From a virus (Duplodnaviria; Caudoviricetes): DNA of 64,000 nucleotides. The stretch is taken from positions 1-64,000 of IMG/VR virus record IMGVR_UViG_2854395284_000001. One strand, 5' to 3'. How positions within the stretch are numbered: position 1 is the stretch's first letter; each line of letters starts with the position of its first letter. The position numbers and the translations under genes were made by a program. Below the pieces are notes generated by a model, which worked only from the letters and a program-made list of their open reading frames with translations, had not been told where the DNA came from and ran no database searches. Shown here one piece after another: positions 3,554 to 61,697 of the stretch.

Positions 3554-5031
3554 ATTATTTTCCTAAAATATATGACTATGAATTGTTCTATAGCATATAT
3601 TCAAGATTGAAACAAGATATAAATGTACAGAGTAATCAATCTTTTAAAGAAATCGTGTTTAAACGACCGAATGAATACATCGAAATATTTTATATAAACG
3701 AACCAAGTGATGTACTACGTTCTTTTATATCGAAAAATTATATTATTAATGACTTATACTATAACCATACTATGTTTTTTTACTGGTCTGTATTTCTAAA
3801 CGAATCGGATAAAGAAAATGCGTTGAGAAAGCTCATATCAAATGACAAAAGTTTTTTAGAATACCTTTCCCCAAGACCAAAACATAAACATCAAAAAATA
3901 TTTCTAAAATATTGTCCGTTATGTGCAAAAGAAAATCGAGAGCAATATCACGAAACATATTGGAATGCTTTCCATCAAATTCCAGAAATTAATGTTTGTG
4001 TAATTCATGGATGTAAACTCAAAAATTCATCGGTTCATGTTAACAATTCAAGAATAATATATTTTCTAACGGCTGAAAATTGCATTAATGATGATTATTC
4101 ATATGATATGGGAACCATCGGTGAAATCAAGGCTGCAAAATACCTATATCAATTAGTAGTAAGAAAACAGAGTCTTAAGAACGGTATTACGATGTTTGAC
4201 GTATTTTACAGGAAGTTAATTCAAAATAAATATATCAATCAGCTTTCATGGCTCCAACACAAGTCTGTATTTTTAGATAATTTTAAACAATATTTATCTG
4301 ATAATAACATAAAGGAGGCTTGTCAAATAAAAGCAATGAGTAGTATATTCTTAAATAAAGCGAATCCACTTAGAACAATTCATATATTGTTATTTTTAGA
4401 TATACAAATATCTGATATTTTTGTATGCAAAACGGCGAAACAAATTGATTCGGAATTAATTGAAAGAATTCGATCAGAGTATACAAAAGATAATGGTATA
4501 AACAAACTTGCGAAACAATATCATATTTTACCTTATAATGTAAGTAAAATAATTAATGGTCAATATGAAGTTGAAAAACAAAAATTAATAAGCCAAAATT
4601 ATGCGTATAGTAGCAGTAGGAATATACCGCCTAAAGGAAAGAGGTATTCTGAATTAGATAAAAAGTATTATCCTAAAATTGAATATTATATTGGCTTATA
4701 TTTTAAGAATTCTGACAAAGTTAGAAGATTAACTGTAGGAGGATTTAATGTTTTCATGCAACAAATTTGTCAAGACATCAGAAGAAATGATTTTTATTAT
4801 ATGCCACAATGCTATAAGTATATTAAAACAAAAGAAAAACCAATAGAGGATTATTGGGTCGATAAAATAAAATATATTGTCGATCAAATTGACAGCGATT
4901 ATATTTCATATAGCGAATTGAAGGGTATGGTACACATAATAGAAAAAAATATGATAAAAGCCATGGATATACTACAATACAGATATCCTGAAACGTACCT
5001 AAAAATACAGAAAAATAATAAAAAAGCGTAA
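3547..5031 (+). CDS. tniQ: TniQ/TnsD-family target selector
   Basis: N-terminal FPKIYDYELFYS; zinc motif YCPLC...WNAFHQIP..VCVIH; 494 aa is TnsD-like length. Confidence 0.85.
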   Translation: MLNYFPKIYDYELFYSIYSRLKQDINVQSNQSFKEIVFKRPNEYIEIFYINEPSDVLRSFISKNYIINDLYYNHTMFFYWSVFLNESDKENALRKLISNDKSFLEYLSPRPKHKHQKIFLKYCPLCAKENREQYHETYWNAFHQIPEINVCVIHGCKLKNSSVHVNNSRIIYFLTAENCINDDYSYDMGTIGEIKAAKYLYQLVVRKQSLKNGITMFDVFYRKLIQNKYINQLSWLQHKSVFLDNFKQYLSDNNIKEACQIKAMSSIFLNKANPLRTIHILLFLDIQISDIFVCKTAKQIDSELIERIRSEYTKDNGINKLAKQYHILPYNVSKIINGQYEVEKQKLISQNYAYSSSRNIPPKGKRYSELDKKYYPKIEYYIGLYFKNSDKVRRLTVGGFNVFMQQICQDIRRNDFYYMPQCYKYIKTKEKPIEDYWVDKIKYIVDQIDSDYISYSELKGMVHIIEKNMIKAMDILQYRYPETYLKIQKNNKKA

Positions 5032-20342: not shown

Positions 20343-21828
20343 TTACATAATTATCTTATGTCCAAGTTTTTTATACTGATCTGCCAGCGTATCGCATGTA
20401 TACTTGCAAGACTGTTTTAATAACTTCTGAATATCAGGAATAGCACTTTTATCCAGATTTCCTTCAACATTTTCGATATTCAGTAACGCATCATAGTGAT
20501 ATGTTACATTCCCGACATTGCTGATGTTCTGAGGAATATTCGTCTGTACCAGATTTGGTGTAGTACTTACATTCATACCGAATTCCCGTGGATCAATTGC
20601 ACTTAATTTAATCAAATTACTTACAAAATCGGCTGGTAGAATAGAATCTCCATCTTGAACAGGTGTAAGGACAGCACCATCTTTCTTGCGATAGATTAAT
20701 TCTGAAACGCCATGATGTTTGGTGTCTTTATTTTCGTTTGTCCATACAAGCTGATCGCCATGAATACGATCCGTACCTTTTTCATAACCACTAATCTGAC
20801 TGAGACGCACCCATCCAAGATCACTATAATTAGGATCATGCGCACTCTTGATATGGATCTTAAAATCACCAGTAGTACGTCCATTGCCGCCATATTCCCT
20901 AGCTGTATAAGAATCAATAACAACAGCACCAGGCTGACCGGAAAATCTACTACCTTTTGGAGACATACCCCAAGAGTCATTGTAGTAAGATCCTGTGAAC
21001 GTTACGACATCGCCAACACGAGGAATTCTATCTCCACCAGTTTTTGCTGGCTGTGGTTTCGGCTGTGGCTTTGGTTTTGCATTGACCTTAATTGATACCT
21101 TTGCAGACAGTCCACTTCCATCGGTAGTGGTAGCAGTAATCGTACAAGAGCCAGGTTTCTTTGCTTTTACCGTACCATTGGATACAGTAGCAATTGATTC
21201 ATTACTTGATTTCCAAGCAAGAGTCTTATTAGCTGCATCGTTCGGTCTGATTGTAGCAGTAATACTTGTGGATTTACCCTCTTCCAGTGTAGTAGAAGTA
21301 GGAGACACCTTTAGTTCCGCAACCTTACGATTCGTTGTATCTTCCGGCTTGACTAATTGATCCGCAAGATCACTGTTTACTTTTGAATTACTGTTGATTG
21401 GATCAGTTTTTGTACCAGATGCGGTACTGGATGGATTTTTATTTGCACTGGACTGAGACTGTGATGCGTTGGAATTTTGATTCTTAACACCTGTCTCTGT
21501 GCTTAGATCAGACTGGGTATTGTTAAAATCCGTACTACCTACCCAGCCAGTATTTTTGATGATAGAGTTGATTTTGCCATATGCTTCTTGATAAGAGGAC
21601 ACGGCTTTGTCAAGCATAGAATTGATGATCTCAAGCTGTTTGTCAGCATTATGACTAATTTCGTACTCGGTATCATCAAGAGAAGTTTTCAGATCTTCAC
21701 TGAGCTTATCGTAACCTTGAGACTGCATATCATTTGCATGGTCACGCTTAGTATCGGCTAAATCTTGCTCTGCTTCTGAAAGCTGCTGCTTCAATTTCTT
21801 AACTTGAGATTGAGCATCGAGGTTATTT
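20343..21828 (-). CDS. Tape measure protein exon 5 (C-terminus with Ig-like Big_2 and SH3-like domains)
   Basis: Joins exon 4 in frame: GGG GT|A AAT AAC (EGVNNLDAQSQVKKLKQQ); Big_2 'WKSSNESIATVSNGTVKAKKPG'. Confidence 0.85.
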
Positions 21829-21971
21829 CATTTTCTTTTCATCCACTCGCTACGTGGACAAGAGCATAACTGCTCCCCATACTTTCGTATGGCATGGGAC
21901 TATATCTTCTATTTGAATTTTATTTGAGGGATTGTAATTAAGATTTGAGGTATAAGAAAAGAGCAGTAGAT

Positions 21972-22490
21972 TTACTGCTCCTGTTGATTGAATGGTATTT
22001 CCTCGTATACATCTAATCCAAATTCTTGATGGAAATTTATTAGACTGGATTTCCGAAAACGTGCAGTTCTCTGTACACGTTGTTTTCTAGCAACATTAAT
22101 ATAAGAACTGATATATTCAATGGCTTCTTTTTCAATGACCGCATAATTATCTTTAATAATTTTTTGCTGAGATTTTGGAATTCTTGGCTCATCACATCTT
22201 ATATATTTATCATCATTTATAACCATTATATATCTATAATCAAGCCCCGCATTTGGCTTATCTTTAGATGGTACAGAAAATCCTATTTTACCAAATGATC
22301 TAACTGGATTTCCTAAGCTTTTACGTAATGGAATTAATATTTTGTTGTCATTATACTGAACTTCCAAACATACATGTGTTCTGATATTATGTTTGGATGC
22401 ATCACTAACATCTAAAATTTGTTCTAAACCAGGATGGTCTATGTAATATTGTTCTAATATATAACAATATGAATATGTTGCAGTTTCCAT
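21972..22490 (-). CDS. Type III toxin-antitoxin toxin, TenpN-like endoribonuclease (172 aa)
   Basis: ILIPLR..GLDYRYIMVI..YI..SSLINFHQEFGL pattern; AAGGAG RBS before ATG 22490; preceded by terminator and pseudoknot units. Confidence 0.7.
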   Translation of the reverse strand: METATYSYCYILEQYYIDHPGLEQILDVSDASKHNIRTHVCLEVQYNDNKILIPLRKSLGNPVRSFGKIGFSVPSKDKPNAGLDYRYIMVINDDKYIRCDEPRIPKSQQKIIKDNYAVIEKEAIEYISSYINVARKQRVQRTARFRKSSLINFHQEFGLDVYEEIPFNQQEQ

Positions 22491-22505
22491 TTTTCTCCTT
22501 AGTAA

Positions 22506-22535
22506 TACAAAAGGAAGCTTAACGCTTCCTTTGTA
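22506..22535 (-). terminator. Intrinsic terminator between antitoxin RNA and toxin
   Basis: AAAGGAAGC-GTTAA-GCTTCCTTTT hairpin; canonical type III TA arrangement. Confidence 0.75.
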
Positions 22536-22541
22536 CAATAA

Positions 22542-22632
22542 TTTTTCGATTTTTTATTAGCCAGGTGACATCGAGAAACCCCTCGCAATATTTTCAGGTC
22601 ATTTTGTGCCGGACACTCCTGAACTATGTCCC
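22542..22632 (-). ncRNA. Putative type III antitoxin RNA, two diverged H-type pseudoknot units
   Basis: Unit 1 GGACA/UGUCC + UUCAGG/CCUGAA; unit 2 AGGGG/CACCU + UCGAU/AUCGA; both have a 12-nt GGC-initiated A-rich loop and end in GAAAA. Confidence 0.65.
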
Positions 22633-23217
22633 ATATAATAAGAAAACTGTTTTGTTTTCTTGATTTTATTATATGCAATTTTCGGAGAAAAATCTATTCA
22701 CAAAATTCACAAACATGCGAACGGTGGTTCGTATAACTTCCACAAACTTGCATAAACTTCTCTATTGTTCTATTTCGTTGTCTTTTCTTTTACTTACTTC
22801 TCGCATACATGTGTTCGAGAGATTCTTTACTCGTATCTACACTGTGTTCTATCTATTCGTCAGTAGCTATAGGAAAGAACACACCTCAAAATTATAATAT
22901 CACTTAATATTCAAATAGTCTATATTTTTTCGACCGCCAATCGCTTGCAGTCTTCCATTAAGGCATTACGCCACCCAATATGGGTTAGTCTCTGAACGTC
23001 TTCCATATCATTTCTGACTTAGGAAGTTCGCTGCGTCTGAGTGACTTGCACACCCGGTTATCCCTAGTTTAATTATTTTTATGGTTTCTATCCAATAACG
23101 GACTGTGAGTTTAAAACTCTACCGCATTCACGCCTATCGTTTCCGGTTACGTTGTAGCCAATTAAACCTTATGGGGACTCCCCGCAATTAAATAGATTTT
23201 ACAGGAGCAAATATTTC

Positions 23218-26200
23218 ACCCCTTCTAAAGCCATGATCTGTGCTTTAATAGCATTAATATCATTGCTCTTTTTGGATATTGATTTATCATAGGAATAATA
23301 GTCAGCTTTTGCTTGAAGCGCCGACTTTCTCTTGCTGATTATTTTATCAAGATAATCAACCTCTGTACTCATAGCGTTCTTATACAGATCAACCAGACTG
23401 TCCTGATATGATTTCACATCTGCAATCGAACCTTGAATACCTTCACGGTAATCTTTTGACTTGTCATTATATTCCGTTAAGGAAATAACCCCATTGTCAT
23501 AAGACTTTTTCAGTTTTTGCAGACCCGTGGTATAATCTGCAATTTTTTGTTTTGCCGTACCAATACTCTGCTGTAAGAGAGCAACTTGTGCCAATCCATC
23601 TTCCGTGATACGTCCTTGCTTATCAAGGAATGCATCATCGTTCAGAAGGTCGCGGAAACTTTTCAGCTCATCTTCAAGGTCACTGTACTTCTGGATAGCA
23701 TCGTCAAGTGGCTTGAATCGTAGCTCATAGATACTATCTTGAAGAGATTCGTTGTCCGTAATCAGTTCCAGAGTATTCTCTTTTAACGTTTGAATCTTTT
23801 CTGCATAATCTTGATACGATTTAGAATTGACATCAAGAACCGCCTGTTTCTTCCGGTATATTTCCATCTGCTTTAGATTCTGCTGTACCTGAGCGTTATT
23901 ATTATCTATACGATCAGTGTATAGATTCTCTGGCACATCACGATTCTGGGATTGCAGGTAAGAAATATATTTCTCCGTAATATCCGAATTACGTTTGATT
24001 CCGGCAATTACATTCTGGATAGTATCAATTTTAATCTGATCCAATTTATCCCGTAGTTCAATTAGACTGGTAGAAGCATCATAAATCTTAGCTGTGAAGT
24101 CTTGGATATTCTTCATAGCAGACTGGTATGCATCGGAACCTTTCTTTAATAAACCACTGGACAGCTGGGAATTGATTTCCTTCTGATACTCATTGAGTTT
24201 CTGCGTAAGCTGTTTGTAAGTATCTTCCTGTGCTTTGATGGATTTATTGATATTGGCATAATTGTCTGGATTGTCAATCGCCACACCCAGCGCATCGTTG
24301 AGAGAAATTTTGGAATCGGCTACGGTTTTTATCGCATCGTTGATGTCTACGATCGTATCATATTCTTTTTCAATGATTTCCAGACGTTTTTCAGCGAGTT
24401 CGGTAATTTTATCTTCGAGTTTGGCTACGTTATCAGCAGCGGATTCATATTTACTGTAGTAGTCCTTATACTCATCAATCTTTTTCTTCAGATCCTCGTT
24501 GGTTACTTTTTCCACATCAAGTGTGCCATTCTGGATTTTAGAGATATAAGAAGGATCAAGCCCCACGTTCGCCGCAAGCTGTAAATACTTGTTGGCTGAC
24601 TGCTGATTTGCAGTTAATTCCTGCTGAACTTTACTGATAGCGTCATATGCTTTTGTCTGCTTCTGCGCCAGACCGATAGCACGATCAATGTTATCAACTG
24701 CAATCTCAGTAGCACGAGACATTTCCTTAAGAAATACTTCTATCCAGTCGAAGGTTTCCTCGGTTGCTTCTTTGGTGGAAGAGCTGCCGGAACTTCCTCC
24801 GGAAGAGCCACCGGATGAGGATCGAGTTGAACCACCAGAAGATGATCCACTGTTTCTACTACTACTGCTACCAGAAGATGAGTTAGGGCTTGTATTATTC
24901 TGTTTCTTTTTTTCTTCCCATGTGGAAGAATCTGCTTTTGTTCCAGAACTTCCAACATTAAATCTTCCCGATCCGCCAGAGAACGCACTACCTAAAGAAT
25001 AACCATCACCTGCAAGCTGTGCATGAGAGCCGGTAACATAACCATGTTCAAGTAACTGCTCCGTTTGATCACCGTTGAATACAACATCATCTTTCTTCAA
25101 ATTTGCAAAAGTAGGATCGCCGCCATTCAAGATAAACGCCTTACCATCCCGAACGATTGCTTCTGGTTTTAACTCATTTACAAGCGCATGTGGTTCATTG
25201 TGAGCAAGCCCCCAATTACGGCTTGCAGTACCTGACGCATGAGCAGTTCCTATAGCGTGTGCCGTACCATTTACTCTTGGAACAGTACCATTTGTCTTAA
25301 TATTGTAAGTCAGACTTCTTGTTTTATTGCCTGGTAAATTTTCAAGTCCGGAAACAACCACACTGTAAGTAACCGTAGCATTTTTGTCTTTCGGATCATA
25401 ACTGTCAATCGCACTATGGTCAACTTTGTATTTGACAGTAGCGTCCTTATCTTTCGGCGTATAATTTACAATCGCTTCTTCGTTTACACCAGCTTTTACA
25501 AGTAATTCTGGCGTAATTCCAGAAATCTTTGCAGAGACGTTGGCAAGAGCATTCGGATCAAGATTTACCCCTATTCCTACATCAATCGGATGAGTAGCAA
25601 TATTAGAAAGTTTCGACTGAAAATCAGTATCGTCAAGACCTAACTTTGCTGTCGTATCAGCATCAAGATTCTGTAGCTGTCCTGCCAACTGTTGTACTTT
25701 CTGCTGTGCATCTGTGGTATCAATGTCGATGCCCTGTGTTTTCATCGTGTTCTGTGCATTCAGAATCTCTACAGCATTCTGATATTCCTGTAATTTTCCG
25801 ATCGCATTGCCTAGTTCTCCGTCAACCTGCGAAGTATCAACCTGTAGAATAGCTGGTGTATTTTCAAGATTCTGTTTCGTAGCGTACAGGGATTGTAAAC
25901 TGTTGACAGCATCCTGTGTGTCAGCATTAACAGGAATCGTACCGTCTTCGTTTCTGAACTGCTCCAACTGACTCTTCAGATCAGAGATCTTTTGATCGAC
26001 AGAACTTGCATCCGCATCAATTACAATGTTATTTTGTCCAGCTTCATGCTGTTTCTGCACCAGATAGTCAAGAATATTATTGGCTTGTTCTAAACGTTCT
26101 GTCCGAACTTCTGGTTCCAAATCAGCGTCATTGACTTGTTGAATATATTCTTTAACCTTGCCAATGTCATCTGTGATTTCACTGAATGAATCTGTGTCCA

Positions 26201-29087
26201 GATTGATGCTATCAAGAGAAGTTTCACCCATTCCATCAAGAGCTTCTTTGGCTGATTGAGCTTCTGTCTTTAGTTGTTCCAGAGATTTAACCGGCTGATC
26301 GAGGTCTATGTCAAAGCCAAAATCATGCAGTTTTCTTAGTACTGATTGCACAGCTTCCACATCAATTCCCAGTGCATCCGCAATTTCTTGATCGTTTCCG
26401 ACACCAAAATTAATTTGCCAGGAACCATCCTCGTTCATATGTGCCCATTCGGAGTTAAGATTGGATATGTCCTGCAAGAATGCTTGACATCCTTCCTGTC
26501 CTTCTGTGAAGTAACGCTCCATCTTCGGATAGGATTCTTCATAGGCAGCCACGATTTCATCCACACTGGCATTGGTCAGATCCTTATTTGACATCAGATC
26601 AACAAACTCTCGGAATTTGTTTTCTCCCACAAGTCCTTTATCGTAGAGATCTTTGATGGATTCCATGTTACCCTGGATGGAATCATACATATTACCTTCT
26701 TCAACACCGGACATAGCATCCTGCCATTGTTGATAAGCAGAAGTAGCAGTTTGATACTGATATGCTAGATCTTCCAGAGAGGAAATATTATTCAAAATAC
26801 CTTCGCGCTGTGCCTGTAAACCGCTGACATCTTGACCTTTTACCATTGCATCGGCAATCTGCTCCTCGACTTGTCTAAGTGCTTCCTGTTGATCTGCAAG
26901 GCCGGAAAGATAATCCGCTTTGTTCATTTCAGATTGTTGTGCCTGTAATTTTGCAAGCTCTTCACGATTGATATGGTAACCGTCTGCGGTTTTCTCCAAA
27001 GCACGCGCAGCATCATCTCCGAACATTTCTTTAAATGCTTTCACATTATCGGCAGAAATACCTGCTCCCGAAACAGATTCAGACATAATCGTCTTGAGCG
27101 TTTCCAGATTTGCTTGTGCTTGCTGAATGGTAGTATTGACTTCTGAGAAGGAATCATCCACTTGATTCATGGATACGGTTGCCGTCATACCCATATCCGT
27201 TAAGAGATCAACAACTTTTGCCACACTTTCAGCAGAATCATCGGAAACAATTCCGAGATCCATTGCTTCATTGACTGCCATTCGCAAAGCATCTTTGCCA
27301 GCTACAACATCACTTGTATCAAGATTGATACTCTTGAGGTCAATATCTGTGTAATTCTTCAACTCTTTGAGCTTTGAAAGTACGGTATTATTTAACTTAT
27401 CTGCACCTCTGCCGGACAGCCGTTCCTTGAACTCATAAGTCTTTTCGGATGCTGTATCAATACCGTCTGCAATCTCATCGAACAACTCCTTGTATTTCTT
27501 ACCGGAATCCGTACTGACAATATTATCCACGGAATCTTTTACGCCATCTAATGCAGTTTTCGCTGATTCGACCTTAGATGTATCTCCACTTTGCAAAGCT
27601 TCGTTATATTTGTCCACTGCATCCGCATATTGCTGATATACAGTTGCTGGTTTATTGTTACCGTAACCTTCTGCAAGCATGGAATTTTTCAGATACTCTT
27701 GATATACTTCTTGATGCTTATCCAAAATATCCTTATAAGAAGATTCTGCATCTTCCGCGGAACTGATGATATTATCAAAGTAATCAGTATTCTTACCCTC
27801 GTCCTCAAACTGCCGTTTCAGCTCTTTAACAGTAGCGAGGAAGGAATTTAATTTTTCATCTGCTCCTGTAACTGTTTCATTTTCAAAACCGAGTTGGAAC
27901 TGACCTGTGCTTGTACTTGTGTACTGTTTTAGTCCAGCTTTTTTTGCCGCTTTCTGGATTTCTTCGATCTGAGTTTTGCTATTTTGGTAACGCTTCAGCG
28001 CATCTTTATATACGTCTGAATTTGTATATTCAGATTTCTGTGGTTCCGAGCCGAGCATAGCTAAAGTAGGTGTATTACCAAAGAATGACTCATAATCATC
28101 TTTGGTCATTTTCTTTTTAGCTTTTTCGTAATTCTTCTCATTATCCGAATCATTCAGCCAACTTTTCGCATTTTCAACTTTGAGCTGCTGCATCTTCTCG
28201 ATCTGCTCATCGAGTTTGCCATTTACAAGATCAATTCCATCCGCCTGTTCTCCATAAGAGTCTGATAATTGACTTTGGATATCTAGCAATTGACTCTTCG
28301 TGTTGTATGCTTCTTGCTCCGTAAGAGTACCAGAATCAAGAGAATCCCTTAGTTCCTGTGCTTTACTAATATTGTCATCAATAGACTTATTACGTTCCTC
28401 TATCTCTGCTATGGAGTCTTTCGTGTGCTGGATGGATTCCTGGACAGATTGATTGTAGCCTTGCCATGCTGCAACGCCTACGGTAACTGCTGTGGTTAAA
28501 AGGAAAATCGGATTTGTAAATGTAGCAAGAAGACCTTTAAAATAGTTTGATAAACCAGAAAATGCGGATTTTGTGGTTTCTACTTTGGGTGCTAATTCAA
28601 CAATTGAGTCACCTAAATCTTGATTATTATCAATGAGATCTTTAACAAACTCATTATATGCCGCGCTGCCTTTTTCACCTGAATTAGCTATCATATCAGC
28701 AATATCGTTATCTTTATATTTTTTTAAGACTTCAGAATTACTACTCATCAAGGCGTCAACTAAATCGCTTGCATTATTTATATTTAATTCTATAGCCTTA
28801 CTAAATGTAAGATTACCTGCCGCAGCTTTTTGATATAAATCAGCGTCATTCGCAAGAGATAATGCTTGTTTTGTCAACGCATCGTTTAAGCCCATGACAG
28901 ATGCTTTAGTTTTAATTTGCTCTGTGGAAAATTCACTAATTCCATTTTTCCCAACTTTAAAAGACTCGTTAAAAGACTGTTGTAGTGTACTGCTTAATGT
29001 GTCAAATGTTGAGTTTTTTCCATATTTATTTCTCAGTAAGTTTAATTCTCCAAAACTACCAAATAAATCACCTAAATTTTTTAACTG
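23218..29087 (-). CDS. Tape measure protein exon 4
   Basis: Long helical ORF with no RBS before its nominal TTG; joins exon 3 in frame (ATA GGT|CAG TTA). Confidence 0.85.
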
Positions 29088-29107
29088 CAAATAAAATTAT
29101 TGTATAA

Positions 29108-29138
29108 TGTTGGATTTATATAATAATTATGATATAAT
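29108..29138 (+). promoter_or_regulatory. Sigma-A-type promoter for intron cargo (TTGGAT-17-TATAAT, extended -10); near-duplicate at 29961-29991
   Basis: tgttggatttatataataattatgatataat versus tgttggatttatataacaattgtggtataat. Confidence 0.7.
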
Positions 29139-29173
29139 GTAATCAATTTGATATATAAGGAGGTATTATCTCT

Positions 29174-29737
29174 ATGGATTTTCAGAATTTAATAATTTGT
29201 CCAGATTGTAATGAGAATGTAAGTATCCACGCAGAAATATGTCCTCATTGTGGACGACCAATAAAAAAATATCTTGAAGAAAATAATATTAATGATTTTA
29301 CTAAAGGTTTTATCTGTCCGAGATGTGGTGACAAAGAAGCTTTGTATTTTACTCCATACAGAAGAGTAAGTTGTGAATATTGTCATATCCCATTTATTCA
29401 AACAAAATATGAGATTGTTGATTTCTTTAATCACCATGGAGAAAGCAAAGAAGATATTCTTCACGATTTAAAAGAACTTGGAGTAGACGATCAATTTGAT
29501 GAAAATGAATATAATAAACGATGTCTAAAAGAAGAAGAATACAGAAAAAATTTAAGGAAACAAGCAAGTCATGAACTTCAACAATCCACTAATCAACACC
29601 ACTGTCCAGTATGCCAATCCACAAATATCGAGAAGATTGGCATGTTTAAGCGTATGCTTTCTACCAGCATGTTTGGAATTGCATCTGATAAAATTGGAAA
29701 ACAGTTTACGTGTAAAAATTGCGGATATAAATTTTAG
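29174..29737 (+). CDS. Multi-zinc-ribbon protein (intron cargo), paralogue of 32188-32775
   Basis: Six CxxC pairs; AAGGAGG RBS; C-terminal CPxC-ST.I.KI...KQF.CKNCGYK. Confidence 0.85.
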   Translation: MDFQNLIICPDCNENVSIHAEICPHCGRPIKKYLEENNINDFTKGFICPRCGDKEALYFTPYRRVSCEYCHIPFIQTKYEIVDFFNHHGESKEDILHDLKELGVDDQFDENEYNKRCLKEEEYRKNLRKQASHELQQSTNQHHCPVCQSTNIEKIGMFKRMLSTSMFGIASDKIGKQFTCKNCGYKF

Positions 29738-29739
29738 AA

Positions 29740-29940
29740 TCATTCCTCATTTACTTTTACCTGTTTCACAAGACATTTCATTTTCTCCTGTAACACACGC
29801 TGCTCTTCAGTAAGAGTAGATGGATCAGTATATATGGAAGGATAATCAGTCTGCGGAAATGGATAATCTATGATTGAATTTGCCATAACATATTTGTGGA
29901 ATTTTTCAAACCCATAATCAATTAAAATACTATCGTACAT
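29740..29940 (-). CDS. Small hypothetical protein (intron cargo)
   Basis: GAGGTG RBS before MYDSIL. Confidence 0.45.
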   Translation of the reverse strand: MYDSILIDYGFEKFHKYVMANSIIDYPFPQTDYPSIYTDPSTLTEEQRVLQEKMKCLVKQVKVNEE

Positions 29941-30032
29941 TTTATATTCACCTCTAGAAATGTTGGATTTATATAACAATTGTGGTATAATTTAAAATTA
30001 TCAAATATATAAATAAGCGGATGGGAAAATAC

Positions 30033-31121
30033 ATGAAAAGAAAACACACAATACGGATAACAGGTCTTTTATGCTTTTCTTTTTTTATTACAAGTTGTGG
30101 ACAATCATCTGCAACATCAGCTTCTAGTGTAATCAAAGAGGCAGTTAATACTGATAGCATCGAACAGATTATTTCAGAAGATAATGAAACGACTGACACA
30201 GCTATAGACGTTTCAGATCAATCAAGCAATTTAACAACAGATAAAGTGTCAAATGTAACATGCTCATGGGAAGATAGTGAAGTACCAATAGAAGTTGGAA
30301 ATGATAATTCAAAAGCACTAATTAAAGATACAAGAATTGTTAATTCTTCATATGGCACATTACTGATTATGGATTTTACATATACCAACAATACTGCGCA
30401 AGCATCAGATTTTATTAATGATAGCAATTGTGATGTAAAACCATATCAAAATGGTATAGAATTAGATAGACCAGGGATAACATCCGAAGCGGGTATTTAT
30501 GATTATAGTGATGCATTTACAAATGTAAAAGATGGAGGAATAATAAATACGCAACTTGTATGGGTTCTTAAAGATACGATGAACCCAGTTGAAATTGATT
30601 TTGGAATAGATTCAAATTACGATCCTGCATATTCAAAGACATTAACTTTAACTGGCGGCAAAGACATTGAAGATAAACAAGATAAATCGCAAGAAACAAA
30701 AGAATCCGATTATAATATATCGTGGCTGAATGACAATGTACCAGAAAAAATTGGAAATGATAATTCGTATGCAATATTAAAAAATACATCTGTTTTGAAA
30801 TCCCCGTCATATGGAATCGTATTAGTAATGGATTTTGAATACACAAATAATCTGGATAAAGCTAGAAATTTTATCAATAACACACCATGCCTTGTAAAGA
30901 TTTATCAGAATGGTGTTGAATTAGATAGTCCTGGAAATACATCGGAACAAGGAATATTCGATTATTCTAATGCGTTTACTGGTGTAAAAAATGGTGGAAC
31001 ATTAAAAACACAGTTGGTTTGGGTTTTACCAGATGATAAAAGTCCCGTAGAAGTCGAATTTGGTTTGGATAATAATTATAAACCACAATATGATTGTACA
31101 TTAAACATTTCTGAAAAATAA
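30033..31121 (+). CDS. Lipoprotein with two tandem DUF5067-like Ig-fold domains (intron cargo)
   Basis: Signal peptide with lipobox-like ITSC; duplicated 'MDF.YTNN...YQNG.ELD.PG.TSE..VK.GG...TQLVWVL'. Confidence 0.8.
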   Translation: MKRKHTIRITGLLCFSFFITSCGQSSATSASSVIKEAVNTDSIEQIISEDNETTDTAIDVSDQSSNLTTDKVSNVTCSWEDSEVPIEVGNDNSKALIKDTRIVNSSYGTLLIMDFTYTNNTAQASDFINDSNCDVKPYQNGIELDRPGITSEAGIYDYSDAFTNVKDGGIINTQLVWVLKDTMNPVEIDFGIDSNYDPAYSKTLTLTGGKDIEDKQDKSQETKESDYNISWLNDNVPEKIGNDNSYAILKNTSVLKSPSYGIVLVMDFEYTNNLDKARNFINNTPCLVKIYQNGVELDSPGNTSEQGIFDYSNAFTGVKNGGTLKTQLVWVLPDDKSPVEVEFGLDNNYKPQYDCTLNISEK

Positions 31122-31164
31122 ATTGGTTCACAATATTTAGTATAATGTGGGGAGGGAAAACTAC

Positions 31165-31782
31165 ATGGCATTAATCAAATGTCCAAAATGTGGTCGTGAA
31201 AATGTTTCTAATTCTGCTGAAAGGTGTCCGTCATGCGGATACAATATTAAGGAATACTATGACAAGTCGCATGAAAAAGACAATGAAAATAAAAGAATTG
31301 TATTAGGTATAGGTATAGTAATATTAGTCTTTGCAGTCCTTTTCCTTAAGAAAGAATCGTTCACTACTCATGACGCTGATCCTTTTAAAAAATATTATTC
31401 GAACTTTGGAAAGGATATTTCGACTGTTAATAAATCTAAAAAATACATAATAAGTTCAACATCTGACCATAAAGGAATGTTGGTAAACAATTCTGTTAAA
31501 ATATGGAATATAGATGGAAAGTTATTATTGATAGCTAACGACCAAGATGATGATGAACTAGGACTTTTAATATGGAGTGCGGAAAATGTTGAATTAGATA
31601 ATACTCAATTAGATCATATAGTTGAAAAAATGGATAAATTATATGGTAAAAACACTTATCATTACGATATTGAAAATGATTTAAAAGTATATGATTGGGA
31701 TGAACTATCCAATATGAAAATTGAATTGTTTTATCGTCCCTGTATTAAAACGATGATGATAAGTTTTTCAACAAATGAATGA
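31165..31782 (+). CDS. Zinc-ribbon, single-TM membrane protein (intron cargo)
   Basis: MALIKCPKCG..CPSCG followed by a hydrophobic helix. Confidence 0.8.
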   Translation: MALIKCPKCGRENVSNSAERCPSCGYNIKEYYDKSHEKDNENKRIVLGIGIVILVFAVLFLKKESFTTHDADPFKKYYSNFGKDISTVNKSKKYIISSTSDHKGMLVNNSVKIWNIDGKLLLIANDQDDDELGLLIWSAENVELDNTQLDHIVEKMDKLYGKNTYHYDIENDLKVYDWDELSNMKIELFYRPCIKTMMISFSTNE

Positions 31783-31799
31783 TAAGGAGATTTAACGTT

Positions 31800-32135
31800 A
31801 TGAAATGTACAGAATGTGGCAAGGAATTAACAGCAGAAGAGCAGAGCCAAGGAACTTGTTCATCTTGCGGGAAAAAGATTGAAACTCCGGCAACATCCAA
31901 TACATCGGAAGAAATTTATACAACGCTTGTTGGACAATCATTGAAGATTGTGGGAATAATTGTTCTAGTAGGTGGTTTTATTGGATCTTTCTTAATAGGA
32001 AAAGATGATTATGGTTATCTTTCTTATTCTAGCTTTTTCTTTTATCTTTTTGTATCTGTTATCGGTGGTTTGCTGATTACAGGTATGGGCGAAATTGTTA
32101 ATTTTCTATATACCATTTGCAAAAAGCTAAAGTGA
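31800..32135 (+). CDS. Zinc-ribbon, two-TM membrane protein (intron cargo)
   Basis: CTECG..CSSCG, two hydrophobic segments, AAGGAG RBS. Confidence 0.8.
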   Translation: MKCTECGKELTAEEQSQGTCSSCGKKIETPATSNTSEEIYTTLVGQSLKIVGIIVLVGGFIGSFLIGKDDYGYLSYSSFFFYLFVSVIGGLLITGMGEIVNFLYTICKKLK

Positions 32136-32187
32136 TGTCGTATAGACTTCAACTCAACTAGGAAATATTTACGGAGGTAATATCTAT

Positions 32188-32775
32188 ATGAGTAAAGTTT
32201 TTTGCCCTGAATGTGGAAAAATTTTAAGTCAATATGCAGAAACTTGTCCTGATTGTAGTTTCCCAATAGCCAAATACGTAAAAGACGCCAATCTTACAGA
32301 CTTTTCAAAAACATTTGTATGCCCTAAATGCGGTTATTGGAGCGACATGAATAGCATTGCTGGCGAAATTATGTGTGAATACTGCCATCTTCCTATGTTT
32401 CAAACAGATGAAGATGGAGATGTAACTCTAAAAGCAACGTTAAATATGAAATCAAATGAAGAAAAAGATTCTTATATTTATTCTCTTTTAGAACGTTGCG
32501 GTAAAACAGATGAATATAGTGAAGAAGCTCATCAAAATTTCCGCCGCAAATTACACGAATGGGCAGAAGAGGAGCGTAAAAAACCGAGCCAACCAGTAGT
32601 TCAGCAGTCCACTACCACACCATCTGCCAACCAACCTCACTGTCCGACTTGCGGTTCTACCGACATCATCAAAATTTCAGCAGCTAAGAAAGCTGTAGGC
32701 GCTGGATTATTCGGATTATTCAGTAAAACCGCTAAGAGTCAGTTTGAATGTAAGAATTGTGGTTATAAGTGGTAA
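32188..32775 (+). CDS. Multi-zinc-ribbon protein (intron cargo)
   Basis: Six CxxC pairs; GGAGG RBS. Confidence 0.85.
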   Translation: MSKVFCPECGKILSQYAETCPDCSFPIAKYVKDANLTDFSKTFVCPKCGYWSDMNSIAGEIMCEYCHLPMFQTDEDGDVTLKATLNMKSNEEKDSYIYSLLERCGKTDEYSEEAHQNFRRKLHEWAEEERKKPSQPVVQQSTTTPSANQPHCPTCGSTDIIKISAAKKAVGAGLFGLFSKTAKSQFECKNCGYKW

Positions 32776-32799
32776 ACTATTCTATGTGAGGTATAAAAC

Positions 32800-33552
32800 A
32801 TGAGTATATTTGAAAAAGACGATTCAATGAATCGATCCGTTAATTTATGCCTAAGTATGTGTGAACAGCTATATAAAATAAAATCTCATAATTTAACCAT
32901 TCTTTTTTCAGACGATATTATGCATGATCGTTTACAATATCAAAATGAAAAAGTTGAATTATCCGAAGAACCAGAGGGATTATATGTTCCTGGCGAAAAT
33001 GGTGCTATTTTTATAAACTATCCTAATTATATAAAAAATCCACCTGCAACGTTAATTACAATAGTGCATGAGCTTATCCATTATTTTGATTCAATGCTAT
33101 TCGTAAATGACTTTTGCGATGGAAACTGGGATAATTTTGAAAATCATGAAATATATAAAACATTCCGTTTGTGGAGTGAATTTCACGCAGTATACCGTTC
33201 TTTATTACTTGGAAGAGAGATATATGCTTATGCAATGCCAGAATATTACTCCAGAGAAGATATTATAGAAGAATTTCAGGACTTTACTAAAATTAATAAT
33301 TATAAAAATTACATAGAATCATTTGACGTAGTTGATTATTATCATATTTTTCGATATTGTGCGGAAGTTATGTTGTGTATAGGAATGAATAATCAAATCA
33401 CATTAGATTATTGTATTACAAATAAATTAGTAAAGGATTTTCCCGCTTTTAAAGAATTATTTTATGATTTGTCAAAGATGACTACGTATGAAAAAGCCAA
33501 GGAACACTTAGACCTGATGCATTGGGAATTGTTCAAACATTTTGAATATTAA
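32800..33552 (+). CDS. Putative HEXXH zinc metallopeptidase (intron cargo)
   Basis: EGLYV..IFIN..TIVHELIHYFD..WSEFHA zincin-like pattern. Confidence 0.7.
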   Translation: MSIFEKDDSMNRSVNLCLSMCEQLYKIKSHNLTILFSDDIMHDRLQYQNEKVELSEEPEGLYVPGENGAIFINYPNYIKNPPATLITIVHELIHYFDSMLFVNDFCDGNWDNFENHEIYKTFRLWSEFHAVYRSLLLGREIYAYAMPEYYSREDIIEEFQDFTKINNYKNYIESFDVVDYYHIFRYCAEVMLCIGMNNQITLDYCITNKLVKDFPAFKELFYDLSKMTTYEKAKEHLDLMHWELFKHFEY

Positions 33553-34790
33553 TTCGATATTAACTTTATCTGATCCCGCAGAAAGTGGTGGTAATTGTTT
33601 GCCATCTTTATCAAGGATTACTTCATAATTCTTTTCGTAATCAACATAAGTGATCGGAGTTGTATGCTTTGAAATTTCTCCGCTATCATATGGTTTACAA
33701 TTTTTTCGATAATATTCCGATGGATCTGTAATTTTTATACTAAAGGAATCCGCTTCTTGTGTTATGTTTTTTATATTGATAATAATCACCTACTTTCATT
33801 TGAACTATTTAAAAAAAGAGGATAAAAGATATGTCATGGAAAATTAGAGTCAGAAGAAGTATGCAGCCATGGCCCTGGTGGGCTATAGCGTTGTTATTCT
33901 TTGTGACATTTTTGTTGAAAATGTTATAGAAGTGGAAGAGGAGAGTATTGGAAAGTTATATTTCCATACTCTCCTCAATTCAATGTTTACTGGCACATTT
34001 CAGCCCACGCACATCCTATAGATGTACTATATTTCGATATGGATATTTTGTATGACTTCCATTTGTCAATCATCTATTTTTACCGTTTTTAGTTTTTCTG
34101 TTCTCAAAACGATTAATAGCATCTATGCTAGATTTTACATTACGAGAGAAAAAATCATTTGCTTTTTAGGATCTAAGATAAATGCTTGATCAGAAGATTC
34201 ATCTTTTACGTCTTTATTTCCAATTATAGTTACACTTGCATCAATAATACCATCAGGATCAGATTTTAATGTTTTAAAAATTAATTCAGATTTAGATTCC
34301 AGGCTTTCACATCCTCCATTGATATTGTAATTTTACGATAAATACCTATATAATTTTCCTATTATTTTCCAACAACGCCAGAAATAGGATAGAAGCTGGC
34401 GTGTGATGAGAAAGCATCACAACTTTCGCGTACCGTGGAACATGCATTCAACGCATATAAACTATGGCATTATATACGCTGGAGGAAGGGTGTTCTCTCT
34501 ACTCCTCCTAACTTTCATATGCTTCGCTCGTCATTATGATATTATCTTTAATTCCATAATTGCTGCTAACATTTCACATATTACTATACGTAGTCAGGTT
34601 GGCTCGTGCGTTCTCGCGGAATTTTCATCCATTTCACTGCATTATTGCAGAATAGCGAATTCGACGAATTAATCCTCTATTTATTTTTTACAAGCACTAA
34701 TCTCCCTACGTTGAAATATCATTCCATTGCTATGATATTCTCCGCATTGATAAGCCAGTTTACGATAAACTATAGCCAGGATTTTGGCTA

Positions 34791-34988
34791 ACCTATGCTT
34801 GATATAAATTTGAAACCACCAAGTGCTGTTAAAGCTGTGCCAAGTGGCCCAAGTGTTTCAGTAATTTTAGTAAGAATTTCTAAGAATTGTGTTCCGCTAT
34901 CTATGACAGCCTTGAAAGTGTCTGATGATAGAACAGAAGTTGAAAATTCTTGGAATGTAGCCTTGAATTTTTCAAGACTGTAATCGAT
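34791..34988 (-). CDS. Tape measure protein exon 3 (66 codons; absent from ORF track)
   Basis: Open frame IDYSLEKFKATFQEFSTSVLSSDTFKAVIDSGTQFLEIL...GGFKFISSIG; in frame with both neighbours. Confidence 0.85.
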
Positions 34989-35531
34989 CGTTATATTAAC
35001 AATAGTCGCTAATTATTGTTTTGTTGTATATTATATATAGAAATAACATACAACAAACTCATACCTTCGCATGAGAGTAGACTATTTCTTAACCACACTC
35101 TAAATAGAAGAGCAGCAGTCACACCTTTTCGATTTAAAGGGATCTCACCTACGTTTATAGCGATTACGCCCTACGAGTATTGAATTAGATATTCGAGATT
35201 TCCACTCTTATTTTTAATATTCTCTACATAAATAAGAATATTTTCTAATTCCCGATATGGCTCTAGTCGTTGAAGATTTTCCCTCGACTTAACTAACATT
35301 TGATCAATGTATAACGTTAGGGAACTTTCCTGCATGAACAGCAATTCCTGATTTATATAAAATCAGTAAACTCGATACTTAGGCTTTTGACCATATATCA
35401 TCCTTACGTTGTTTCTACTTTCGTCCCATCATAATATGATTTCTCCATTATTGTGGTGTAAGGCTTTACGCGTTACCTGCAATTAAATGTGTTCTTTATG
35501 CACATTTCTGTACATACGGGTATACGAATTT
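34989..35531 (-). ncRNA. Group I intron 2 of tape measure gene (543 nt, no ORF)
   Basis: GGT|...G|ATC junction restores frame; P7 CAACGACUAG/AAUAGUCU; long sequence blocks shared with intron 1. Confidence 0.85.
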
Positions 35532-35682
35532 ACCCTTTTGGTAATTAGTTAATTCCTTTTCGGCGGAATCTTCGGAATCGTTCATCGCAGTATTAAGCGC
35601 TTGACGAGCAATGTCAAACTGGGACATAAGTGCGCTCATTACCGCTCCTTGATTTTTTCCTGCGATCAACTCAGTTACACTT
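35532..35682 (-). CDS. Tape measure protein exon 2 (151 nt; absent from ORF track)
   Basis: SVTELIAGKNQGAVMSALMSQFDIARQALNTAMNDSEDSAEKELTNYQKG continues the tape-measure domain. Confidence 0.85.
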
Positions 35683-36121
35683 CATATTTTTTTGTTAATA
35701 TAGCCCTCGCTTGAGACTATACCAATTATTATTGAGTCAGATAATAATTCTTATACTCGCATATAAGATCAGAGTACTTTTTAACCACATTATTCATCTT
35801 AAGAATAATAGCAGTCACACCATTTCAGACTTCATTTAGCGATTAAGCCCTACATTAAGGATTTCTCCCCCCTGACGTTGGGGTACTCGTTTGACACATC
35901 CCTATTCGGGACTTTGCGACCAAGCTACCATTTCTAATTTAAAATAATTAGCAAAATTTCTACTTAGGCTTTTGACCATATAGAATCTCTATCGTTGTTT
36001 TACTTTCGTTACATTCATATCAGCATGTTTCATCCATATTGTAGTGATAGAGCATTAGGTTTTACTGGTTTTAGATGTGTTCTCTTATGCACATTTCTGT
36101 ACATACAGGCAAGTGTAGTCT
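35683..36121 (-). ncRNA. Group I intron 1 of tape measure gene (439 nt, no ORF)
   Basis: IGS UACACUU-G-CCUG pairs exon 2 AAGUGUA and exon 1 CAGGC; P7 GAGUAC/GUACUC; terminal G. Confidence 0.85.
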
Positions 36122-38952
36122 GCCTGCTGGATGTCTGTTAAATCAGACCATTTATTTGCTAACTCATCAAGAATTTGATAAGTAGACTTAAAAGTATCTT
36201 TGTCTTTCAGAATATCTACGCCACTAAGTGCAAGCATTTCTTTTCGAAGCTTGGCAGTAGAAGTTACCATTCCTTCAGTGTCAAGACCGGCTTCTTCAAG
36301 ATCTGTTTCGGCGCTTCTTATGCGCATTGAGATCGTTTTTAGTGCTGTCCCGATTTTTTCCGGATTTTGAATTACACTATTCGCTGCACTGGCAAGCGCA
36401 ACACCCTGTTCATACGTATTGCCAGCGGCTTTTAGAGATGATGCAGATCTTTCAATTGCTTCAAAAATACCTGCTGTATCAATAGGCTGCGTATTGGCTA
36501 CCTCATTTGCCACATCTACGATATGTTGTGCTTGATCTGCTTTTAGTTGAAAACCTTTCAATGCACTAATTAGACCAGAAGAGGATGTTTCCTGGGTCAT
36601 GTTATCTCCGACACGTTGCAGAAGAGTAGTCATGTCAGACAATTCTTTTGCGTCATCAAGAGAAGCTCCGAGACGTTTCCAATCCGCAGTACTGCTAATT
36701 ACATCACTAACTGTAGCACCATATTTCTTGGCACTTTCAGCAGCCTTATCCCAGTACTGACTTAATTGGCTCTCCGATGCATCACTTGCAACTTTTGCTA
36801 ATTCAATTTGAGCATCATTAATTTCCTTTACATTAGAAACAACCTTTGATGGAATTTCCATAACGACATTCTGCAACATGCCGTAAATTCCCGTAAATTG
36901 AGCAATTTGATTAATAGCACGTTTTGTATCTTGCCAAATGTTTGCTCCTGTTAATCCTTCAGCAGAAATTTTTGCCTTCAAATCTCTTGCTTTAGCATCA
37001 ACCTCTAACTTTTGCCCTTCCGTTGTTACATTTTTATAAGCATCACGAACTTCTTCAAGCTGCGCCTTATATTTCTTCCATGCCTTACTATTGTTATTGA
37101 TATAAGATTGCATCTCATTTGACGCACGTAAAGCGACCCCAGGTGCTAGTGTTGCAGTTTCTTCAGCTTTGACCTGTTTTATCGCAGTTTTATATTTTTC
37201 TTCTTCTTCAGTCATCTTTTGAAGATTTTTACTAAGACGCTCAACCTCTTCATCACTAAGATCAGAAACATTCGTATCTTTTAATGATTTTTGAAAATCT
37301 TCACGAATCTCTTTAAACTGCTTAAGACTTTCTCTTGCACGAGTCAGTGACTCAGAAGTTTGCCCCACATACTTAGAAAGAGTATTTTTATATCCAGCTT
37401 CTGTTGCGGAATATGTTCCAGTTTGTAATTCTTTCTGAACTTCTGCTAATTTTTTACGGGCATTAATTTCCTGTTCGATGTTAGAAATGATTTTAGAATT
37501 ATCATAGTTGACCGCTTTTGTAATTCCGGAATCACTATTAGTATAAGAATCTCGTAGAGTCTTTAATTTTTCTAATTGCGATTTGCTTGCAAAACCGTCG
37601 GAATTTTTTACAAGATTATCAATTTTATCAATAGTTCTCTGAAGTGTGGTACCATCTAGATTTTTTGAAAGTGAAGTTCCAAGCGTTTTCGCGGTAGTTT
37701 CAACTTCATTAAGCTTTGCATTCAAAATATCAGCATCCGAAGCAATTTGTGTTAAATTTCCAGAAGATCCTTTTGCTAATTCTGCTTTTATACTAGCCTG
37801 TTTGTCATGTATGGTATTCACTATTTTTTCTAAAGATGATAAAACGTCTGCAGAACCATCTTGTCCAGCGTACTGAGATTTAAGCTTTTCAACTTTTGCG
37901 TCAAATTGTTTCATTGAACTATCTGAGACAAGGTTTTTTGCTTGAGCTACTTTTTTATCAATGGCATTTTGAAGCTTTGCTGCATTTGAATCTCCAATGA
38001 CGGTATCTTTTTTAGATGTTTTCTCCATAGTGCTATTGACTAGAGTCATAACATTTTTAAATTCTTTACCAGCAGAAGTACATTCATCAAATTTTGACTT
38101 AATTTGATCCATTGATGTGCCAGAAGAAACAAGGTTTGATAATTCTTTTTCCAAACCTGTTATAGTTGTATCAAGCGTTCTTGCTCTTTCAATTGCATCT
38201 GTAGATTGTCCAGCATAATTACTTAGTTGTTTCGAACGCTGTCCCTGACGAATAGCAGTATTGTCATCATTTCCATAAGCTTTGATTGTAGCATTTTTCT
38301 CATCGACATACGTGTTGTAGCCATTAGCTTTTCTACGAAAATGATTAAAAGCTTTTTGCTCCAATTCATCATTGTAAAAACCTTGCTTTTTTGCATCTGC
38401 AATATATTTTCGGTTTGCAGACATTTCATTAACTAAATCAGAAATCCGACCTTTAACATACTGTTTATCCTCTGTGGCTACTTTGCCTTTTGCTTCTTTT
38501 GTCTTTAATGAATAATATTCTGTTACGTCTTTATTTAACTGAGAATATGCTTTTTGAAGATCAACGACGGTCTGCTTCTCAGATGTTAACTTACCATTCT
38601 TGTTATAAGATTGTTGTTTTCCATCAGCATACGTATACGAATGAGAAGTAGATGGACGTCCTTTTTTATCATATATTGTTGATTGTACATACTTATCTGC
38701 GTTTTTTGGAGTACTTTGTTCAGTAGCTGTTTTAGTTTTATTTCTTTTTCTAGACGTTTGAGTATGTTTCTTTTGTTCTTTTTCAATCTCATCAGACAGC
38801 TTCTTAACCTGTTTAGATGCTTCATCTGTTTTGATATTAATCTCTTTTGGTTCAGTAATTTTCTTCTCAAAATCATCGATTATTTTTTCGCTATTTTTAT
38901 CCAGTGCAGCTTTTATAACAGCTTCGAGGTTAATTGTATGTTGTTTTGGCAT
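36122..38952 (-). CDS. Tape measure protein exon 1
   Basis: Coiled coil followed by the tape-measure core 'IGTALKTISMRIR..GVDIL..FKSTYQILDELA..W'. Confidence 0.9.
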
Positions 38953-61479: not shown

Positions 61480-61562
61480 TACCGGCAGCGAGACTCGAAC
61501 TCGCACTGCTCATAACAATCTGGGCTTAAACCAGATGTGTCTACCAATTCCACCATACCGGC
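61480..61562 (-). tRNA. tRNA-Leu(TAA)
   Basis: Cloverleaf with long variable arm, anticodon loop TTTAAGC, GTTCGAG T-loop; no encoded CCA. Confidence 0.85.
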
Positions 61563-61597
61563 ATACGGAGGCACTGCCTCCATTCGCTAATTATATA

Positions 61598-61687
61598 CGG
61601 AGCCTGTAGGATTCGAACCCACGCGCCGTTGTTAGCGGCCTGTCAGTTTTCAGGACTGATCTCTTCATCCAACTTGAGTAAAGCTCC
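61598..61687 (-). tRNA. tRNA-Ser(TGA)
   Basis: Long variable arm, G discriminator, anticodon loop CCTGAAA. Confidence 0.85.
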
Positions 61688-61697
61688 AAAATAAAAA

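Follow-up and report, generated by a model that had tools for sequence, protein, structure and literature searches.

The tape-measure gene of an uncultivated gut phage raises the question of how an essential gene can carry a kilobase of toxin-antitoxin sequence inside it and remain undamaged. The phage is represented by a 91-kb viral record (IMG/VR IMGVR_UViG_2854395284_000001; estimated to be 38% complete), of which positions 1 to 64,000 were analysed; this stretch is referred to as the window, and its numbering is used throughout. The gene is very long, lies on the minus strand and is split into open frames 38952..36085, 29090..23199 and 21794..20343, with the first piece matching tape-measure PHROGs and the last carrying an Ig-like domain. 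The insert studied here is the 1389-nucleotide (nt) gap separating the second and third pieces. Sequence comparison makes it highly probable that this insert (23217..21829) is a tape-measure group I intron, whose P8 loop encloses, as a self-contained unit, a TenpIN-kind type III toxin-antitoxin cassette and serves as an exchangeable slot. The essential gene would be left undamaged because the cargo sits within a ribozyme loop and, as we propose, is removed by splicing. The exons, the intron and the helices at the splice sites are as follows.

23218..29090, minus strand: upstream tape-measure exon, in a 1963-residue open frame extending 6 codons into the intron.
21829..23217, minus strand: group I intron of 1389 nt in the tape-measure gene, with an IA-like core including P7.1 and P7.2 (from Rfam matches, intron-less alleles and covariation).
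20343..21828, minus strand: downstream tape-measure exon (exon 3), starting A AAT AAC CTC GAT, with the Ig-like domain inside.
23203..23223, minus strand: P1, read from the sequence as exon AGGGGU (23223..23218) paired with guide GCUCCU (23208..23203), with a U.G pair at the splice site.
23209..23213 and 21824..21828, minus strand: possible P10, likewise read from the sequence, UAUUU (23213..23209) with exon 3 AAAUA (21828..21824).

Comparison with related phages, through intron-less alleles and covariation, provides what we regard as the decisive evidence for an intron. Using the first 143 residues of the downstream exon, 22 viral loci were collected, and the end of the upstream exon was then located in each (loci are given L numbers). 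In L043 and L045, the homologues of exons 2 and 3 are contiguous, with a single codon in place of the window's insert; these are therefore intron-less alleles, and they fix the junction exactly. The 5′ splice site follows U23218 and the terminal intron base is the G at 21829. Joining U23218 to A21828 brings GAAGGGGT and AAATAACC together in frame, giving ..ALEG V NNLDAQ.., and the spliced junction is predicted to read GAAGGGGU followed by AAAUAACC; in the unspliced strand the upstream frame ends ...GCU UUA GAA GGG GU and runs on into GAAAUAUUUGCUCCU. P1 covaries with the exon, as it consists of GGUGU/GCACC in L044 and of exon UCGGU with guide GCCGA in a second kind of intron (type 2) found at the same site. 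At relaxed thresholds, the Rfam model RF00028 (Intron_gpI) gave partial matches to both halves of the insert: one to the 3′ half (21876-22084; 33.1 bits, E 3.3e-6), spanning J8/7-P7′ in its consensus form (GAAGAUAUAGUCC) and the GAAA hairpin of P9, and one to the 5′ half (22895-23227; 16-19 bits), spanning P1, the P6 region and GUUCAGAGACUA.

Nine loci share the window's ribozyme. Across the aligned 5′ half, 57 proposed pairs are paired in 99.3% of cases; sliding the partner brings this down to 44% or less. Nine of the pairs have changed on both sides, one of these being a P1 pair that includes an exon base. The 17 pairs of the 3′ half (P9, P9.1 and P9.2) are 98.8% paired, nine with compensatory changes, so that both halves together comprise 74 pairs, ~99% paired and 18 with compensatory changes. 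RNAalifold, run on the alignment with the cargo deleted, returned the order P1, P4, P6/6a/6b, P7, two post-P7 hairpins (as in IA introns), a further hairpin, a 10-base-pair (bp) helix and P9-P9.2. This pattern shows the insert to be a ribozyme under structural selection. The remaining helices were placed as follows.

22919..22923, minus strand: P3′ strand AUAGA (22923..22919), proposed by eye to form P3 with UCUAU (23196..23192).
22986..22990, minus strand: 5′ strand of P7, GACUA, after GUUCAGA (J6/7), pairing with UAGUC at 21902..21898 (RNAalifold).
22909..22918, minus strand: 5′ arm of P8, CUAUUUGAAU, the final conserved bases ahead of the variable cargo in all sister introns.
21909..21918, minus strand: 3′ arm of P8, AUUCAAAUAG, followed by J8/7 AAGAUA and P7′ UAGUC (21908..21898).
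21841..21891, minus strand: covarying hairpins P9 (21891..21878), P9.1 (21875..21862) and P9.2 (21859..21841), preceding the terminal G 21829.

The P7 strands agree with the Rfam consensus (GUUCAaAGACUA and AAGAUAUAGUC), both J6/7-P7 and J8/7-P7′ fit it, and at the P3′ site the consensus auCuGuCgAAUUGCGG is similar to AUCUAUUUAAUUGCGG. The 10-bp helix is assigned to P8 because the order around the cargo is P3′, 10-bp helix, J8/7, P7′. In the window it closes a loop of 990 nt, and in the nine sister introns the conserved core stops exactly at both of its arms, with the sequence between them varying by cargo type. Comparison with the Rfam consensus and RNAalifold led to the rejection of two other assignments: GGGG/CCCC was not kept as P2, nor was AAAAAUAUAGACU, which resembles J8/7, kept as a second copy of a core strand, since both favour P3 = UCUAU/AUAGA and P4 = UGCG/CGCA. 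The detailed assignment around P4-P5 is uncertain. Separately, 67 nt from the 5′ region of the intron (window 23123-23189) match, at ~81% identity, stretches that are unannotated or labelled 'hypothetical' in phiKZ-like Pseudomonas phages (EL and relatives), and ~39 nt are 95% identical to Serratia phage Yaphecito; these matches are probably related intron cores.

A previous sequence-only reading of the window had proposed a group I intron with a toxin-antitoxin module in its P8 loop. The features it listed all lie where it had placed them, on the minus strand; the 10-bp helix does fall between P3′ and J8/7, enclosing 990 nt, and the intron itself is borne out by the partial Rfam matches, the two intron-less alleles and the covarying helices. 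Between the P8 arms, the cassette reads in the direction of the tape-measure gene:

22674..22908, minus strand: non-coding leader of the cargo slot, common to the ToxIN variant L025 and in part to the PBECR4 variant L030.
22640..22679, minus strand: predicted cargo promoter TTGCATATAAT, with the -10 box TATAAT at 22673..22668, and a 5′ hairpin at 22661..22640.
22587..22633, minus strand: TenpI-like unit 1, ~47 nt, with an A-rich 3′ tail (covariation).
22540..22586, minus strand: TenpI-like unit 2, ~47 nt, with an A-rich loop and tail (covariation).
22510..22532, minus strand: terminator 1, read by eye as the hairpin AAAGGAAGC-GUUA-GCUUCCUUU with a U-rich tail, between the RNA and the toxin gene.
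22500..22495, minus strand: ribosome-binding site (RBS) AAGGAG.
21972..22490, minus strand: putative TenpN-like endoribonuclease toxin gene, 172 residues (NF047358 match; fold of an AlphaFold2 (AF2) model).
21959..21982, minus strand: terminator 2 (terminator scan), whose 5′ stem encodes the toxin's last residues and its stop codon (..QEQ-stop).

A consensus terminator scan listed four terminator-like sites against 1.1 expected; terminator 1 was absent from them. A hairpin nevertheless occupies this position at every family locus examined, with a stem sequence that differs from locus to locus. The leader region 22642-22908 is not unusually structured (z -0.81). An antisense open reading frame (ORF) of 74 residues within it (22673..22897, plus strand) was rejected as coding because changes are spread across all codon positions, with 14 non-synonymous against five synonymous codon changes. 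Two DNA sequencing runs (X5 and X7) contain the cassette, in X7 in a composite context with an endonuclease plus TenpIN.

The two RNA units are predicted to fold as H-type pseudoknots, because in each the stems S1 and S2 interleave. In unit 1, S1 is GGACA/UGUCC (22631..22627 with 22615..22611; 99% paired, three pairs changed on both sides) and S2 is UUCAGG/CCUGAA (22623..22618 with 22598..22593; 82% paired, two such pairs). In unit 2, S1 is AGG/CCU (22583..22581 with 22565..22563) and S2 is UCGAU/AUCGA (22574..22570 with 22550..22546). Over 20 homologous RNAs, the 19 proposed pairs are paired in 88.9% of cases as against at most 43% with the partner slid, and seven have changed on both sides. 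Because the two units differ in sequence, Tandem Repeats Finder did not pick them up; in the subfamily of the window's cassette the two have drifted apart, yet each is conserved across loci, whereas in L023 (Clostridium tagluense) the homologous units are tandem repeats with a one-base difference. No additional copy of the TenpI motif was found in the window. Beyond the intron, the layout was compared at 21 non-intron family loci from bacterial metagenome-assembled genomes, isolates and viral contigs, and all 21 have the same order: -10 box, short hairpin, two ~47-nt units, terminator hairpin, RBS, toxin. Published TenpI agrees with this: its two repeats are not identical, each folds as an H-type pseudoknot whose loop is A-rich, both are functional, and the complex is 2:2 (PMC13682666; PMC12283969).

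The 172-residue protein matches a single model, NCBIfam NF047358 (TenpIN), over profile positions 3-140 of 141 (E 1.4e-19, 70.7 bits). A total of 111 homologues were found, and all 35 aligned family members match NF047358 and no other model. A PHROGs search returned only a family of unknown function, and a profile search of PDB sequences returned nothing relevant. An AF2 model built from the homologue alignment (pLDDT 86, pTM 0.85) had type III toxins as the five best families of its Foldseek matches, the best solved structures being ToxN (2xd0, E 6.8e-4, TM-score 0.57-0.60; 4ato; 7d8o), AbiQ (4glk) and CptN (4rmo), followed by MazF/Kid. P54-L55-R56 is invariant in the 35 aligned sequences and corresponds to the active-site strand P53-L54-R55 of E. 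coli TenpN, in which R55A and S56A abolish toxicity (PMC13682666). Residue 57 is K, N, T or S across the family, and in the window protein S58 comes next; distant family members read PLRS (P0107), and L023 reads PLRSH. On its profile score, the protein is a relative, not an equivalog, and the predicted fold suggests it to be a putative ToxN-fold endoribonuclease toxin of the TenpIN kind. The sequence-only reading had also called this ORF TenpN-like, its surroundings a canonical type III layout of RNA, terminator and toxin, and the RNA a pair of pseudoknots; the profile match with the ToxN/AbiQ/CptN fold, the recurrence at the 21 loci and the covariation on 20 RNAs agree with it on all three.

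That the P8 loop is a slot is indicated by sister phages which, with flanking exons 94-100% identical, hold different cargo between the same P8 arms:

L025 and L039: ToxN (PF13958, E 6e-43), with 2.9 copies of a 34-nt repeat and a terminator upstream.
L030, L032-L038 and L044: PBECR4 nuclease, with drum RNA (RF02958) and a terminator upstream.
L028, L031 and L040: NYN-domain protein.
L046: MazF/PemK-like toxin, with a small ORF, two drum RNAs and a skipping-rope RNA upstream.

Both the ToxI repeats of L025 and the drum RNA of L030 likewise lie behind the promoter TTGCATATAAT and its 5′ hairpin. Terminator 2 was compared between window 21959-21982 and the regions around 3830-3880 of L025, L030 and L031: it also closes the ToxN and PBECR4 ORFs, such that three unrelated toxins have their final residues encoded in its stem, and the NYN ORF of L031 is closed by a near variant, with the TenpN, ToxN, PBECR4 and NYN ORFs all ending EQ-stop. 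The TenpIN, ToxIN and PBECR4 (L030) cargoes thus have a fixed promoter/hairpin and a fixed terminator in common and have therefore been exchanged between two fixed flanks; NYN and MazF-like cargo keep at most one of the two. By this comparison, the P8 loop is an exchangeable slot for predicted RNase-toxin units, and the shared EQ-stop-encoding terminator marks its right-hand recombination junction. A pattern search of viral contigs for P8 arms 1-30 nt apart found no cargo-free copy of the intron. In L028 and L031 (~3047-3192), the NYN cargo has a promoter unlike the shared one (TTGCAT .. TATACT) and, before the ORF, a ~100-nt leader that ends in a hairpin. The drum RNA, a function-orphan with its own terminator, occupies the ToxI/TenpI position upstream of PBECR4 (L030 3095-3201, with the ORF at 3258-3857; L044 3034-3142) or of the MazF-like toxin (L046 2640-2747 and 2817-2918), a placement that fits the idea that drum RNA may be an RNA antidote.

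The cargo of group I introns is classically a homing endonuclease, and the sequence-only reading had held that the cassette stands in place of one. This, too, is borne out by related phages, in which the type-2 intron at the same tape-measure site encodes an HNH homing endonuclease of 427-499 residues (phrog_559, E 3.5e-48 to 1.4e-58). The window intron has no endonuclease gene. Composite introns in L029 and L046 hold both endonuclease and toxin cassette: an HNH-endonuclease intron with its own J8/7-P7′-P9 is followed by a second core of P3′, P8, cargo and 3′ part. They thereby possess two alternative 3′ ribozyme halves (L029 1037-4000; L046 664-4000), and a pig-gut DNA run contains the composite form independently. 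The homing endonuclease of a related intron could spread such introns.

How would the cassette operate? Its promoter and 5′ hairpin would drive an RNA of two non-identical ~47-nt pseudoknot units. By analogy with TenpIN, ToxIN and CptIN, most transcripts would stop at terminator 1, leaving the RNA in excess; the toxin would cleave the RNA precursor in its A-rich linkers, would be kept inactive in a closed RNA-protein complex and would be freed once RNA supply or transcription drops. The invariant 10-bp helix could meanwhile join the two ribozyme halves across 1 kb.

As to what the phage gains, the sequence-only reading had proposed an anti-phage or addiction module; the role we rank first as most likely is that of a conflict module, directed against competing phages or against host (TenpIN-type) defence. 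A more far-reaching version, which we put forward only tentatively, holds the P8 loop to be a standardised expression slot with a fixed promoter/5′ hairpin and terminator, into which TenpIN, ToxIN and drum RNA-PBECR4 units are swapped by recombination, with NYN and MazF-like cargo placed between the same arms, while endonuclease-bearing sibling introns spread the slot. The intron would then be a mobile weapon rack against co-infecting phages or toxin-based host defence, replacing or supplementing homing.

An unlikely competitor is that the cassette is mainly a source of antitoxin, with the TenpI-like RNA neutralising a TenpN abortive-infection toxin of the host and the linked toxin secondary or merely co-inherited. 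The RNA is indeed far better conserved between this phage and its bacterial and phage relatives (~87-92% DNA identity) than the toxin (~60-75% protein identity), and four Enterocloster phages carry the RNA alone. One of them, CB473P3 (OP172757.1; L001 2994-3097, minus strand), has the two-unit TenpI-like RNA together with the promoter motif, at 87% identity to window 22538-22641; the RNA is not followed by a toxin ORF, and the complete 107-kb genome yielded no TenpN homologue. CB473P1, CB473P2 and CB457P2 are alike in this respect, and a skipping-rope RNA (RF02924; L001 2891-2970) lies directly downstream of the RNA in CB473P3. The Enterocloster phage RNA is a candidate for a phage-borne antitoxin mimic, and antitoxin mimicry by phages is reportedly known for ToxI (Blower et al. 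2012). Yet the toxin ORF of the window is intact, is 97-100% identical in several metagenomes and keeps all family-invariant residues, and intact toxins are also found in the sister slots, which argues against the toxin being a mere passenger of the RNA.

Slightly less probable still is an addiction or toxin-antidote drive on behalf of the intron, whereby, in mixed infections or upon recombination, genomes or cells losing the intron would be left with the stable toxin but not with the labile RNA antidote, so that an intron deprived of its homing endonuclease would be retained and spread more readily. The window intron carries no such gene, yet the same intron is present in many phage lineages with different toxins; moreover, type III systems stabilise plasmids (PMC12283969). 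However, toxin and antitoxin would be common to all genomes in one infected cell, which makes a cis advantage hard to see.

Returning to the intron with its TenpIN-kind cassette, a number of observations weigh against it. The gathering score of 50 bits for Rfam RF00028 was not reached (33.1 bits), and a scan of the window at gathering thresholds gave only three tRNAs; the low score is expected, as the 990-nt loop exceeds what the model can span. P3 and P8 never vary (all five P3 pairs are invariant among eight variants) and, because of this invariance, have no covariation support, the assignment of P8 resting on its position beside J8/7. Four sequencing runs showed no joint across the intron, and the RNA runs gave only two short contigs, a 211-nt one (22897-23107) from a possible RNA library and a 163-nt one (21904-22066) from a fish-gut metatranscriptome, informative neither on transcription nor on splicing. 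Two sense-strand terminators fall within the essential gene's pre-mRNA and would be expected to reduce tape-measure expression; polymerase may pass them by read-through or antitermination, or the ribozyme may be assembled from two transcripts joined by the 10-bp helix. As for the toxin, it scores below the curated TenpIN cut-off of 90 bits, has no Pfam or PADLOC match, and has a Lys (K57) after the catalytic Arg, not the Ser of E. coli TenpN; with the Ser one position later, the catalytic set is not identical to that of E. coli.

The Rfam score, the missing spliced reads and the two terminators could also be accommodated if the insert were a mobile-element insertion or a decayed intron, splitting the tape-measure gene into separately translated pieces. 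We consider this very improbable, given the exact one-codon junction relative to the intron-less alleles, the 18 ribozyme pairs with compensatory changes and the covariation of P1 with the exon; in addition, the first start codon of the downstream exon has, as far as its sequence can be read, no convincing RBS. From its position in an intron loop, the 172-residue ORF might be taken for a homing endonuclease or some other nuclease acting on DNA; this is barely credible, since it matches no endonuclease family, Foldseek retrieves RNase toxins only, and the actual homing endonuclease at this site is a different HNH protein.

Which parts of a group I intron with TenpIN-kind cargo are familiar? TenpIN, a plasmid system of E. 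coli, Klebsiella and Salmonella (cryo-EM structure of 2026, PMC13682666; survey, PMC12283969), has the same order of promoter, RNA, terminator and toxin, two non-identical H-type pseudoknot repeats with an A-rich loop, a ToxN-like fold and a P-L-R active-site strand, and TenpN genes have been reported in viral genomes before (same sources). The window module differs in that its toxin belongs to a divergent subfamily (70.7 bits against 90) with Lys replacing Ser after the catalytic Arg, in that it lies, in sense orientation, in a ribozyme loop of an essential phage gene, and in that the toxin's C-terminal codons are fused to a terminator common to unrelated toxins. ToxIN (Pectobacterium, Bacillus, E. 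coli), AbiQ and CptIN (Eubacterium rectale) provide the best structural matches of the toxin model, and genuine ToxIN occupies the same slot in the sister phages L025 and L039; in contrast to ToxIN, the window protein has no match to Pfam ToxN_toxin, and the repeats are longer and non-identical.

In phage introns such as T4 td/I-TevI, it is familiar for a peripheral loop to carry a homing endonuclease ORF. Likewise, group I introns are known from prophage tape-measure genes of the Bacillus cereus group (Tourasse and Kolsto 2008, PMC2504315). These tape-measure and T4-type introns resemble ours in the type of host gene, the IA-like core, the occurrence of different introns at one site, the peripheral-loop ORF and the existence of intron-less alleles. 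Their cargo, however, is a homing endonuclease gene or nothing, whereas the window loop carries a putative RNase toxin and RNA antitoxin under a predicted promoter of their own, with cargo exchanged between sister phages. Phage morons are promoter-gene-terminator units inserted between essential genes; they, too, are autonomous transcription units with their own promoter and terminator, variable among close relatives, but the window unit lies inside an intron of an essential gene and not between genes. A full-text literature search for group I introns carrying toxin-antitoxin systems, of type III or any other, returned nothing relevant.

Elsewhere in the window, ~7 kb at 29090-36085 interrupt the same tape-measure gene, with plus-strand ORFs at 29174-33552 encoding zinc-ribbon proteins and others; the sequence-only reading took this stretch for further introns with antisense cargo, and proposed a second case of the same strategy in the gene, near 29088-34790. 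Three consecutive tRNA genes lie on the minus strand at 61480-61781. For annotation, the tape-measure gene of this phage carries a warning, as it will be called as several unrelated ORFs.

In sum, tape-measure group I introns and TenpIN modules, including viral ones, are known; new is an undescribed arrangement of these ordinary parts, together with an unusually clear natural exchange series. If the modules work, introns would be safe harbours and vehicles for phage conflict genes, and the natural near-isogenic variants would offer a way to test how type III systems serve a phage. The role of the drum RNA would likewise become testable, because the slot puts it exactly at the position of known RNA antitoxins.

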